From: a virus | Lineage: Duplodnaviria; Heunggongvirae; Uroviricota; Caudoviricetes | DNA: 64,000 nucleotides | IMG/VR virus record: IMGVR_UViG_2513237251_000004 | Strand: one strand, 5' to 3' | Part shown: positions 62,904-63,467 of the stretch, piece by piece | Numbering within the stretch: position 1 is the first letter of the stretch | How the letters are laid out: each line of letters starts with the position of its first letter | Translations under genes and position numbers: made by a program | Notes under the pieces: generated by a model | Databases searched by the model: none | The model's input: the letters and a program-made list of their open reading frames with translations, nothing else | Told to the model about the DNA's origin: nothing

Positions 62904-63200
62904 GATGACCTCCTTATTTGTTTAGTTTATAACCGCCAGTTAGTAGCTGGCGGTCGGGTGTCAACTGAGCCAAATAAGAAGCTCTGGGCATATTCCCCTT
63001 GCGGGTGTTGTATTACGCCTCTCCACCCGACCTTTGTACGGATGTAACTATGCCAAATTGCAGGCATAAAAAAGCCGCAAAGCTATCGGGTGCGGAGACC
63101 GCTTATTTGTTCAGTGCGGTCAGTATGCGATAGCTCTGGAGGATTTGTCAATCAGCGGAATATTGATGAACGGGTAACGGTAAATGCCTCATCCAGAAAA

Positions 63201-63233
63201 TTAACGCAAATTCGCATCGCAAACTTGCGTTAA
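63201..63233. promoter_or_regulatory. Near-perfect inverted repeat TTAACGCAAATT-(9)-AACTTGCGTTAA
   Basis: 11 of 12 arm positions complementary; lies between antirepressor-like gene and attR. Confidence 0.4.
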
Positions 63234-63268
63234 TTATCTGAAATATCAAGTTAAATCCCCTTAAATGT

Positions 63269-63349
63269 TTGGGGCACTATTGGGGCAAAATGTGGTTGTT
63301 TGGGGCACTATTGGGGCAAAATGTGGTTGTTTGGGGCATATTTGGGGCA
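63269..63349. repeat. Six direct copies of TTGGGGCA in a 31/32-bp periodic pattern (candidate Int/Xis arm-type sites of attR P-arm)
   Basis: Copies at 63269, 63280, 63300, 63312, 63331, 63342; about 120-200 bp from the wrbA junction. Confidence 0.5.
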
Positions 63350-63467
63350 AAAAAGAACGTATAAAGAACGGTGTAAAATTGATTTCTTCATGGTCAAAAT
63401 GAGGTGTAACAGATTGAAAAATATATGCTCTTGGACGATCTTCGGTAATTCTGTGTTTTTAATGCTT

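Follow-up and report, generated by a model that had tools for sequence, protein, structure and literature searches.

Two separately inherited control modules, probably an integrase-binding arm and an antisense-RNA switch, beside the attR junction of a 933W-type Stx2 prophage

The DNA analysed here, a stretch of 64,000 nucleotides that we refer to as the window, contains a 933W-type Stx2 prophage inserted in wrbA. For E. coli O157:H7, 933W and Sp5 serve as the reference Stx2 phages. Over the 560 bp between the antirepressor gene and the wrbA junction (positions 62904-63467), the identity with phage 933W (AF125520) and with Stx2 converting phage I (AP004402) is 100%. The att core (overlap region) GTTTCAA, to which no strand is assigned, lies at 63472-63478, where the prophage meets wrbA (attR); AF125520 labels this 7-bp word "attR core" and AP004402 labels it "attachment site", and it has the same letters in attP and in the window. 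Because the "attR core" of AF125520 maps to these positions, the junction lies about 5 bp to the right of 63467, the position at which the original prediction had ended the region. A 5' remnant of the host wrbA gene, read from the sequence on the minus strand (63459-63521, with ATG at 63521-63519, 20 codons, and a stop at 63461-63459), runs into the prophage, and the attL loci show the intact wrbA side. At the opposite end lies the antirepressor gene (ant; 62274-62903, minus strand), which encodes an AntA N-terminal domain and P22_AR_C and is the first gene of the right-end operon. The features that had been predicted between these two borders all proved to be real, with slight corrections to their coordinates. 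Comparison of related phages showed that 62904-63151 is co-inherited with ant and 63127-63478 with int.

The int-linked part contains a tandem array on the plus strand (63266-63358), in which a 31-bp unit is repeated 2.8 times with 96% matches (TRF and repeat search). The array carries six copies of TTGGGGCA, starting at 63269, 63280, 63300, 63311, 63331 and 63342 (spacing 11/20/11/20/11 bp), and there are no others in the 64-kb window; both the number and the alternating 11/20-bp spacing given in the original prediction were borne out by the exact-match count. By count alone six copies are unremarkable, being reached in 7 of 100 shuffles of the window; the clustering of all six within 81 bp is unusual. 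From the architecture of the motif and its conservation among relatives, we infer that the 933W integrase very probably binds the TTGGGGCA copies as arm-type sites, situated in the P arm.

The 933W Int contains Arm-DNA-bind_2 (PF12167, residues 7-70, 90.6 bits) in addition to Phage_integrase, and has the separate N-terminal arm-binding domain that characterises heterobivalent tyrosine integrases; among solved structures, matches were to relatives of the catalytic domain and none to the arm-binding domain. In the circular sequence of AP004402, the six copies lie 123-209 bp from the core on the P side, and TTTGGGGCACGTCTGGGGCAC lies 64-82 bp from the core on the int side, where its spacing and orientation match those of the P-side copies. 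This P' pair sits inside the 3' end of int, with the 11-bp spacing of the P arm. A short repeated motif that is unlike the core is present, as is typical of arm-type sites, on both arms of attP. The core, which comparison with the attP regions of related phages had been expected to place, is given at 63472-63478 by the phage records themselves. A TGYCCCN pair is kept at the int end in relatives with 29-70% Int identity and different cores. Five virion genomes were compared, from Klebsiella, Enterobacter, Escherichia and Salmonella phages (Int 58-66% identical, cores unrelated). All five have TGCCCCA-N4-TGCCCCA in the int tail and a second TGCCCCA 166-185 nt beyond the int stop, which is a full pair in four of the five and, in the fifth (Tritos), one exact TGCCCCA beside a TGTCCCA variant; the int-tail site and the second site are 196-207 bp apart. 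The IMG/VR integrase loci, nearly all of which are cut at the att site, were used solely as integrated-state controls. In 44 integrated prophage loci of comparable Int identity, the int-tail pair was almost always present and a second pair was found in none on the downstream side, where host DNA has replaced the P arm; these loci serve as a natural control.

The persistence of the pair in the int tail goes beyond what coding would explain. The 7-mer is invariant in 39 distinct int tails, including three fourfold-degenerate third positions, and the T before it is kept in these tails though the encoded amino acid varies (F, Y, N, T or D). In relatives at 44-45% Int identity the pair is located past the int stop codon, and is therefore under no coding constraint. 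The motif and its geometry are retained among Int relatives with different cores, and the whole P-arm module is inherited with int and not with ant.

This arrangement is similar to that of the arm-type sites of lambda attP (P1, P2 and P'1-P'3), which are bound by the N-terminal domain of Int: a short motif unrelated to the core occurs on both arms with a spacing of about one turn, the P' sites adjoin int and the P sites lie on the far side (110-150 bp in lambda vs. 123-209 bp in 933W), the P arm ends at attR in the prophage, and Int has a separate arm-binding domain. Unlike lambda, where the motif is C/AAGTCACTAT, 933W has TGCCCCA, with a P' pair inside the int coding sequence and all copies in one orientation; moreover, the sites of the 933W type, which are predicted, are paired and vary in number from 2 to 6 between relatives, and the N-terminal domain of Int is Pfam Arm-DNA-bind_2. 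Phi24B has an unusually long attP, of which 350-427 bp are needed (Fogg et al., 2011, PMC3064807; PMC7581858). It shares with 933W a Stx-phage tyrosine integrase and an antirepressor gene near the recombination module, and differs from it in the integrase and the integration site (PMC3064807; PMC7581858). Since the Phi24B papers define no arm-type motif, the sites of the two phages have no direct comparison. Literature searches on TTGGGGCA with integrase, on 933W attP arm-type sites and on wrbA attP arms gave nothing relevant, and the literature searched yielded no results on binding, footprinting or recombination by 933W Int; the binding sites that define the 933W/Sp5 attP do not appear to have been mapped before.

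We propose that 933W Int acts as a lambda-type heterobivalent tyrosine recombinase with an N-terminal arm-binding domain, and that its arm-type sites would be the TTGGGGCA heptamers, paired one helical turn apart. Of these, the P' arm of the circular phage would hold one pair, within the last 60 nt of int, and the P arm one to three pairs, about 200 bp away; arm-bound Int would bridge to the core sites (GTTTCAA overlap), aided by bending or accessory proteins, for which 63407-63419 and 63427-63450 are candidate sites. The first of these is an IHF-like site on the minus strand, TTTCAATCTGTTA, which departs from WATCAANNNNTTR by one mismatch and lies between the proximal arm pair and the core. 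Its position is plausible and TTTCAAT is partly conserved; taken alone it is insignificant (7 matches vs. 7.7 expected). The attP locus has no exact copy of the IHF consensus, and allowing one mismatch gives this single site. The second is a conserved block with no assigned strand, GCTCTTGGACGATCTTCGGTAATT, 22-45 bp from the core, a candidate site for Xis or for a host bending factor, which is kept in 933W, RCIP0098, Mulock, CobraSix, SP-016, phiP27 and BP-4795 despite their different cores.

The number of copies in the P arm differs among relatives (2, 4, 5 or 6). Sakai, TL-2011c and Ss-VASD have 2 units of 31 bp, phiP27 carries two pairs that lie 41 bp apart, five tandem copies occupy the same place in BP-4795, and RCIP0098, Mulock, CobraSix and SP-016 keep a site or a pair at the position of the array, as does Tritos with its exact copy and variant. 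A polymorphism of 2 or 3 units was observed in 215 of 5,426 complete E. coli genomes. The ancestral pair is the proximal one (63331-63349); in 933W, the arm unit would have been tandemly triplicated with a period of 31 bp, about 3 helical turns, and all arm sites would therefore face the same side of the helix. It is conceivable, though we regard it as doubtful, that the core-proximal pair alone is functional and that the extra 31-bp units are neutral products of slippage or duplication (a VNTR) with no effect on recombination. Distant relatives manage with one pair, both the 2-unit and the 3-unit form are common in complete E. coli genomes as well as in phage records, and the 100% identity among the units suggests a recent duplication. 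However, independent lineages, as the phiP27 and BP-4795 arrangements illustrate, have multiplied the sites in different ways, and the 31-bp period keeps the helical phase. The sequences suggest that multiplication of the sites is tolerated or favoured rather than random. If the copies are Int arm sites, the TGCCCCA-pair motif, its geometry and its copy-number polymorphism are targets for studying the efficiency of integration and excision of toxin phages, and the motif may be used in attP annotation across the Arm-DNA-bind_2 integrase family and in integration vectors.

The original prediction had taken the repeats as arm sites for both Int and Xis. The comparative evidence for arm sites is strong, and it favours Int over Xis, since the motif flanks the core on both arms. 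It is unlikely that, in place of the arm-binding domain of Int, the TTGGGGCA copies bind the excisionase (DUF1233 Xis) or some other protein, be it accessory or from the host. The Xis gene adjoins int and is co-inherited with it, and for this reason sequence comparison alone cannot separate Xis or another factor from Int. In addition, lambda Xis sites also look like tandem direct repeats in the P arm. Sites conserved on either side of the core about 200 bp apart are nevertheless the pattern of Int arm sites, whereas RDF sites are grouped close to the core on a single arm; the arm-binding domain recognised in Int requires a cognate site, and for Xis a better candidate is the block at 63427-63450, which is nearer to the core.

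At the outer edge of the P arm there is a long hairpin followed by UUUU (63192-63242, minus strand). The original prediction had described it as a 12-bp palindrome at 63201-63233; the dyad is there and is larger, with arms of 22 nt that are 86% complementary (63194-63215 and 63219-63240), and the literal 12-bp perfect palindrome is absent, as the perfect inner arms measure 11 nt. RNA of the minus strand, which is the strand of int and ant, folds at -27.9 kcal/mol with respect to -18.1 kcal/mol for the plus strand (RNAfold), with a stem of 17 bp that includes 2 G-U pairs, and the minus strand gives the more stable fold in five of five variants of the palindrome. The Ss-VASD group shows one compensatory change from G-C to A-U and also one C-A mismatch (minus strand). 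The palindrome is conserved in close relatives only (the 933W/TL-2011c group); Tritos has a canonical terminator with a bulged stem at the equivalent place (RNAfold). A simple terminator scan called neither the palindrome, which has only 4 T's, nor the bulged Tritos stem. We read the palindrome, from its predicted fold, as a tI-like terminator: it would probably end int transcripts and, in the lysogen, would also stop read-through from the host wrbA promoter, as an insulator. The layout is like that of lambda tI/sib, in that a hairpin with trailing U's lies on the int strand past attP and the P-arm Int sites and is separated from int by integration. Unlike tI/sib, the 933W hairpin has only 4 U's and its conservation is confined to the group mentioned above; RNase III cleavage and N-dependent read-through are features of lambda. 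The lower stem extension of the 933W hairpin includes the U run, and read-through transcripts would therefore form a longer duplex. A terminator beyond the P arm as a feature of the whole family was considered and rejected, being clear only in 933W-like phages and in Tritos.

It is very improbable that a regulator of the antirepressor operon uses the repeats and the palindrome as operators or iterons. They do lie upstream of this operon and of a promoter-like site, and the palindrome has the dyad symmetry that is typical of operators. On the other hand, phages with the same ant module and other integrases are without both elements, phages with this int but no ant keep both, and the distance upstream of the -35 amounts to at least 118 bp for the repeats and at least 43 bp for the palindrome. 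A search for resemblance to the cI-cro operator region was negative, as was one for CI-operator-like words common to that region and 63100-63270. The palindrome resembles the hairpin of a terminator more than it does an operator; the mismatches of the dyad become G-U pairs on one strand only, which points to RNA. Hardly tenable is the idea that the region encodes small proteins, such as ORF-43 (phrog_24266), which begins within the final repeat unit and runs across the core: several Stx-phage records do annotate ORFs of 44-91 aa, and these make up PHROG families, but the members come from near-identical phages, integration splits an ORF that crosses the core, the conserved block GCTCTTGGACGATCTTCGGTAATT is read in different frames by the annotated ORFs of 933W and phiP27, distant relatives have inconsistent ORFs of 18-82 aa across attP, and a change in the number of 31-bp copies shifts the frame of upstream ORFs through the repeats. 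Coding explanations were thus rejected, and the absence of a convincing ORF, as originally stated, holds: the region has only ORFs of 31-75 aa, two of which match PHROG families of hypothetical ORFs from near-identical Stx phages, and no ORF is consistent across attP in distant relatives.

The 560-bp stretch quite probably consists of two control modules of ordinary kinds that were hitherto uncharacterised, an Int-binding attachment-site arm and an antisense-RNA switch before the antirepressor gene. The module at 63127-63478 would be the P arm of the attachment site of the 933W integrase, and the one at 62904-63151 the control module of ant. The single region of arm sites and operon control that had been proposed stands for the arm sites, and in part for the promoter; it overlooked that the two modules are inherited separately, and the protein operator it called for was not found. 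The control elements found near ant would act at the RNA level.

The predicted promoter is a sigma-70-like site on the minus strand, TTGACA-18-CATACT (63122-63151, predicted start near 63115), which is a consensus match only. It lies at the exact 5' edge of the ant module that is common to phages with other integrases, and homology to the ant module of Stx2-phage 86 starts at the -35. Related viral loci retain the -10-like hexamer, the aligned position in VHML reads TTGCTG-17-TAATCT, and in the TL-2011c/Ss-VASD lineage a hok start region takes the place of the -10. Immediately downstream, we predict a short RNA of about 48 nt (63068-63115, minus strand), similar to IsrK, seqA and a1b1, with the 5' word ACUGAACAAAUAAG, a hairpin CCGCA...UGCGG and U6. 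ACUGAACAAAUAAG is a copy of the word upstream of the ant Shine-Dalgarno (SD) sequence (direct repeat D4, 63102-63115 vs. 62913-62926). The block of the short RNA is conserved out to Vibrio phage VHML, and most viral loci have the same upstream layout; the MFE fold of the short RNA misses the proposed terminator stem.

Between this block and ant lies an sRNA-Xcc1 element (Rfam RF02221; 62944-63032, minus strand), with a closing stem, a GNRA hairpin and a second hairpin. The match is full-length (1-87) and scores 69.1 bits with respect to a gathering score of 53, and the element has alternative folds of -49.6 and -48.6 kcal/mol. sRNA-Xcc1 was reportedly first described as a trans-acting virulence sRNA of Xanthomonas. 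A permissive Rfam scan of 62800-63600 (E<=1) gave sRNA-Xcc1 alone, with nothing for the palindrome or the repeats and no C4 (RF01695), isrK or c4-a1b1. Directly 3' of the closing stem there is a 9-bp hairpin (62931-62955, minus strand; inverted repeat I3) of -15.5 kcal/mol (z = -4.7), whose helix is retained in Stx2-86 with base changes. This is the hairpin previously placed directly before the antirepressor ribosome-binding site, at 62940-62960; it is real, and its position is the one given here. The "hairpin leader" of the original prediction is, judging from these sequence features, part of an sRNA-Xcc1/C4-like antisense switch.

The loop of the second hairpin, CUUCUUAUUUG (loop letters CUUAUUUG), is antisense to the ribosome-binding region of ant. 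The translation initiation region (62901-62926, minus strand) contains the word ACUAAACAAAUAAG, the SD sequence GGAGG and the AUG at 62903-62901. Positions 62907-62920 pair with 62971-62984 (inverted repeat I2), and the loop/SD duplex has an energy of -18.8 kcal/mol. Loop and SD region covary across 75 unique viral loci (about 80 phage loci): cognate duplexes have a mean of -13.6 kcal/mol as compared to -9.8 kcal/mol for non-cognate ones (z = -14.7), and none of 2000 permutations reached the observed mean. The same word is shared by the upstream copy, the loop and the ribosome-binding site in 48 of 80 loci, with 61 distinct words. The loop is therefore complementary both to the ribosome-binding region and to the upstream repeat, with covariation, as in RNAs of the C4/CI type. 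The genes downstream are antirepressors in most cases: 72 of 79 proteins (78 from viral loci and the window's own) have antirepressor-type N-domains, namely KilA-N, P22_AR_N, AntA, Bro-N, Rha and ORF6N, and their mean identity is 13%.

The three-part layout is that of P1/P7 c4-ant (immI), of the P4 CI RNA with seqA/seqC and of Gifsy-1 IsrK-orf45-anrP (PMC4825925), that is, an upstream copy of the target word with a terminator, a compact RNA, and the target word at the antirepressor ribosome-binding site. The compact RNAs of these systems and Xcc1 also share a closing stem, a GNRA hairpin, a hairpin with the antisense loop and an NCC tail, which follows the closing helix in most of 106 elements and would fit a release of the RNA from its leader by RNase P. 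Unlike the C4 systems, the 933W RNA is classed by Rfam as sRNA-Xcc1 and, as the C4 model misses it at E<=1, homology to C4 is not demonstrated; unlike P1 c4 and IsrK, the 933W locus lacks a small upstream ORF (icd or orf45) in the interval from the Xcc1 RNA to ant. A mechanistic precedent for a switch in the leader is IsrK (PMC4825925).

On balance, we lean towards the view that phage sRNA-Xcc1 may be the antisense core of a three-part switch like those of C4, CI and IsrK (decoy word with terminator, antisense loop, ribosome-binding-site word), which gates the translation of antirepressors with at least six unrelated N-domain families. As to its direction, we infer that the predicted promoter would make a short RNA stopping at the terminator, and that read-through transcripts would carry sRNA-Xcc1, whose hairpin-2 loop would pair with the SD region of ant and block translation. 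The short RNA has the SD-region word and could therefore titrate this loop, which would switch ant translation on. The leader thus offers a testable mechanism for the silence of the att-proximal antirepressor, and suggests that many "sRNA-Xcc1" annotations of Rfam in phages may mark antirepressor switches. If this is true, in the lysogen the att-proximal switch lies directly downstream of the wrbA promoter, with only the P-arm hairpin in between, and host stationary-phase transcription could therefore feed prophage induction.

The window has its own C4 module (19294-19545), located before another antirepressor, with genuine Rfam matches to C4, isrK and a1b1 at 19294-19491 and the same layout as the Xcc1 locus; 933W would then hold two independent switches of this kind, for two antirepressors.

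The original prediction for the interval between the antirepressor gene and the wrbA junction (62904-63467) was confirmed as to the features seen in the sequence, and the candidate arm sites and leader switch found there are uncharacterised new examples of well-known kinds of element, in a medically important phage. Phage 933W (AF125520) and Stx2 converting phage I (AP004402) match the region with 100% identity; VT2-Sakai/Sp5 and many O157 phages, which lack one 31-bp unit, match it with 99.7%. To its right, the 7-bp core GTTTCAA (63472-63478), annotated as 'attR core' in the 933W record, is followed by codons 1-20 of host wrbA (minus strand) and then by ymdF. 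The genes to its left are all minus-strand genes and code for an AntA/P22_AR_C antirepressor (ant, 62274-62903), a TraR/DksA zinc-finger protein, DUF4752, Ead/Ea22-DUF551, hok/sok and a BOF protein. Judging from the coordinate offset between window and comparison locus, the first nucleotide of the window falls within the integrase gene (int), about 107 nt from its 3' end, and attL therefore lies outside the window.

A sensitive search of 62904-63467 against 50,697 phage records split the region into two modules. Positions 62904-63151 (query 1-248) are 80-90% identical in phages whose integrases differ (Stx2-phage 86, P27, 75/02 and Vibrio phage VHML); in Stx2-phage 86 and VHML, the two whose annotation was inspected, an antirepressor gene directly follows the homologue. 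Positions 63127-63467 (query 224-564) are about 83% identical in TL-2011c, Ss-VASD, phi191 and others, which share the 933W integrase (>98% identical) and in which the homologue adjoins a hok/gef gene in place of ant. This split in inheritance indicates that repeats and palindrome are part of the int/attP module, and the hairpin of the ant module.

The repeat TTGGGGCA occurs six times in the 64 kb, always within 63269-63349 and with the predicted alternating spacing (11/20/11/20/11), as 2.8 copies of a 31-bp unit, of which units one and two are identical. Since AP004402 and AP005153 carry the annotation 'arrangement gg / g, region III' on it, the repeat was already known as a sequence feature; our literature search found no published description of these proposed arm sites. 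In AP004402, which is circularly permuted, the minus-strand order is xis (excisionase gene), int, core, repeat region and ant, and 933W Int contains an Arm-DNA-bind_2 and a catalytic domain. Besides the six P-arm copies, an octamer search of the attP locus found TTTGGGGCACGTCTGGGGCAC 64-82 bp beyond the core on the int side (P'). This pair falls within the final 60 nt of int and repeats the P-arm arrangement in orientation and 11-bp spacing. The same geometry, around unrelated cores, was observed in five virion-derived genomes with intact attP and 58-66% identical Int (Klebsiella RCIP0098 and Mulock, Enterobacter CobraSix, Escherichia Tritos and Salmonella FSL SP-016). In all five, the int tail contains TGCCCCA-N4-TGCCCCA and a second TGCCCCA lies 166-185 nt past the int stop; the second pair is complete in four, Tritos having one exact TGCCCCA beside a TGTCCCA variant. 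The two sites are 196-207 bp apart, as compared to 200 bp in 933W. In a set of 75 loci of integrated prophages (GTDB genomes), the int-tail pair is present in nearly all whose Int is at least 56% identical, and no locus has the second pair downstream of int, the P arm there being replaced by host DNA. IMG/VR loci of the 933W integrase itself show the same contrast.

The int-tail pair codes for part of a conserved FAPSMPH/Q peptide. Coding constraint nevertheless does not account for its conservation: in 39 distinct int tails three fourfold-degenerate third positions of the two 7-mers never vary, the T preceding the first copy is kept although its codon varies (F, Y, N, T or D), and in relatives at 44-45% Int identity the pair (TGTCCCA or TGCCCCA) stands past the stop codon. 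Site variants (TGCCCCG, TGCCCCC and TGGTCCCA) were seen down to 29% Int identity. With the motif on both sides of the core and in integrase relatives, the proposal that the repeats are P-arm recombination sites has good comparative support, and TTGGGGCA/TGCCCCA is a well-supported candidate integrase arm-type site. Considering that the P arm is multiplied differently in other lineages (two pairs 41 bp apart in phiP27, five tandem copies in BP-4795), the six 933W copies are read as a lineage-specific triplication of a putative ancestral pair. The arm is present in 215 of 5,426 complete E. coli genomes, with two-unit and three-unit forms side by side.

Two database records deserve mention. In phage phi191 (NC_028660, 2474-4155) two of four TTGGGGCA copies lack one G and the integrase is annotated as two CDS (integrase and 'DUF3596 domain protein'), pointing to sequencing errors in homopolymers or to decay of the recombination module. 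The 455-bp contig NZ_JPLE01000249.1 (Xanthomonas pisi DSM 18956) encodes residues 1-105 of the 933W integrase with 100% identity, and is most likely E. coli or Stx-phage DNA contaminating that assembly.

The palindrome is real and longer than claimed, with 22-nt arms at 63194-63240. As minus-strand RNA, the strand of int and ant, it forms an uninterrupted 17-bp stem followed by UUUUCUGG (-27.9 vs. -18.1 kcal/mol for the plus strand); two of its pairs are G-U, at positions that are A-C mismatches on the plus strand. All five sequence variants fold more stably as minus-strand RNA, and in the Ss-VASD group one G-C pair is changed to A-U. In longer transcripts a lower stem taking in the U run can form below the hairpin. 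Its position resembles that of lambda tI/sib, on the int-coding strand just past the outermost arm site; a canonical terminator occupies the corresponding place in Tritos, but three other relatives examined have none there. On the basis of the strand-asymmetric fold, the U run, the compensatory change and the tI/sib-like place, we give even chances to the palindrome being a terminator and insulator. An operator is less likely, both for the strand asymmetry and for the inheritance with int, and no protein operator for the ant operon was found in the region. As a terminator, the hairpin would stop transcription running out of int when the phage is circular, and transcription coming in from the wrbA promoter when it is integrated. 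Integration leaves this promoter and a 20-codon WrbA' frame (63459-63521, minus strand) aimed into the prophage, and only the P-arm hairpin (63192-63242) lies between them and the antirepressor module.

Other candidate sites surround the core. Alignment of distant attPs revealed an IHF-like element adjoining the P' pair and, near the core, a strongly conserved block, GCTCTTGGACGATCTTCGGTAATT (63427-63450), a candidate Xis or bending-factor site; an IHF-like site with one mismatch lies at 63407-63419. The core-adjacent CTTCATGGT (63458-63473) is repeated 79 bp inside the P arm (63379-63394), with a C-to-T change in the Ss-VASD group, and this inner copy could be an additional core-type Int site or due to chance. 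A further word, GGGCAAAATGTGGT twice and GGTCAAAATGAGGT once (63283-63296, 63314-63327 and 63392-63405), lies partly between the arm sites and partly on their proximal side, and is kept in close relatives and absent from phiP27 and BP-4795; it is a possible accessory-protein site. A small-protein reading of the area was rejected: the annotated ORFs (ORF-43/phrog_24266, phiP27 L58) are not conserved and read the GCTCTTGGACGATCTTCGGTAATT block in different frames. As predicted, no convincing ORF is present in 62904-63467 (longest ≤75 aa).

Control of ant appears to occur through RNA. Its leader contains an sRNA-Xcc1 element (RF02221; 62944-63032, minus strand; 69 bits vs. a gathering score of 53). 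The hairpin predicted before the ribosome binding site exists, at 62931-62955 instead of 62940-62960, after the Xcc1 closing stem. Conservation with Stx2-86 and VHML reaches upstream to TTGACA-18-CATACT (63151-63122, minus strand), a -35/-10 match that makes the expected promoter of the right-end operon plausible. The second-hairpin loop is complementary to the ant Shine-Dalgarno (SD) region (14 bp, -18.8 kcal/mol), and the folds with SD sequestered and as in Rfam are nearly isoenergetic (-49.6 vs. -48.6 kcal/mol). In 933W the word before the SD, AACAAATAAG (62913-62926), recurs upstream of the Xcc1 element at 63102-63115. An exact 15-nt copy of CTTATTTGTTCAGTG (63102-63116), the reverse complement of the 5' word of the predicted short RNA, lies at 43261-43275 (plus strand) in ORF 42255-43958; chance alone would give about 1e-4 such matches per 64 kb, and the copy could be a trans target or coincidental.

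A pattern scan of IMG/VR for Xcc1-type leaders gave 120 stretches (106 unique). Cognate loop/SD duplexes averaged -13.6 kcal/mol as compared to -9.8 for non-cognate ones; the observed cognate mean was reached in none of 2,000 permutations. A 7-10 nt word preceding the SD is found again upstream of the element, before a small hairpin and U run; word, reverse complement in the loop and word all match at 48 of the 80 unique loci (61 different words). Among the 79 distinct downstream proteins the mean identity is only 13%, yet 72 have KilA-N, P22_AR_N, AntA, Bro-N, Rha or ORF6N domains. The literature searched offers only two published hints of linkage: in APSE phages sRNA-Xcc1 lies upstream of an ORF6N gene (PMC7313666), and in Xanthomonas integrons upstream of symE (PMC12444791). 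Some phage contigs carry tandem pairs (e.g. IMGVR_UViG_2630968342_000010, 2287-2838), and in Xylella fastidiosa (Temecula1) five elements follow one another at intervals of about 380 bp (PMC12189769); this spacing is too close for a full antirepressor gene after each, and therefore not every copy fits the leader model.

The ant leader has the layout of the P1 c4, P4 CI and Gifsy-1 IsrK systems, in the last of which a short terminated RNA activates translation of its own read-through transcript (PMC4825925), and of the window's own Rfam-annotated a1b1/isrK-C4 module (19294-19545). Since the Rfam C4 model does not detect the Xcc1 element of the ant leader, our claim is limited to a probable shared mode of action, without family membership. 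That second switch (19294-20222, plus strand) comprises c4-a1b1/isrK (19294-19381), C4 (19407-19491) and, behind them, an ORF6N + P22_AR_C gene (19545-20222) with the target word ATCGAAAC ahead of its SD; the 933W-type phage thus has two antirepressor genes, each after its own antisense-RNA module. Further Rfam matches in the window, to STnc100 and AsxR downstream of stx2, the lambda cIII thermoregulator element and sok (24341-24599, 7763-7821 and 60147-60321), and to three tRNAs (22684-22932), are all as expected for a 933W-type phage.
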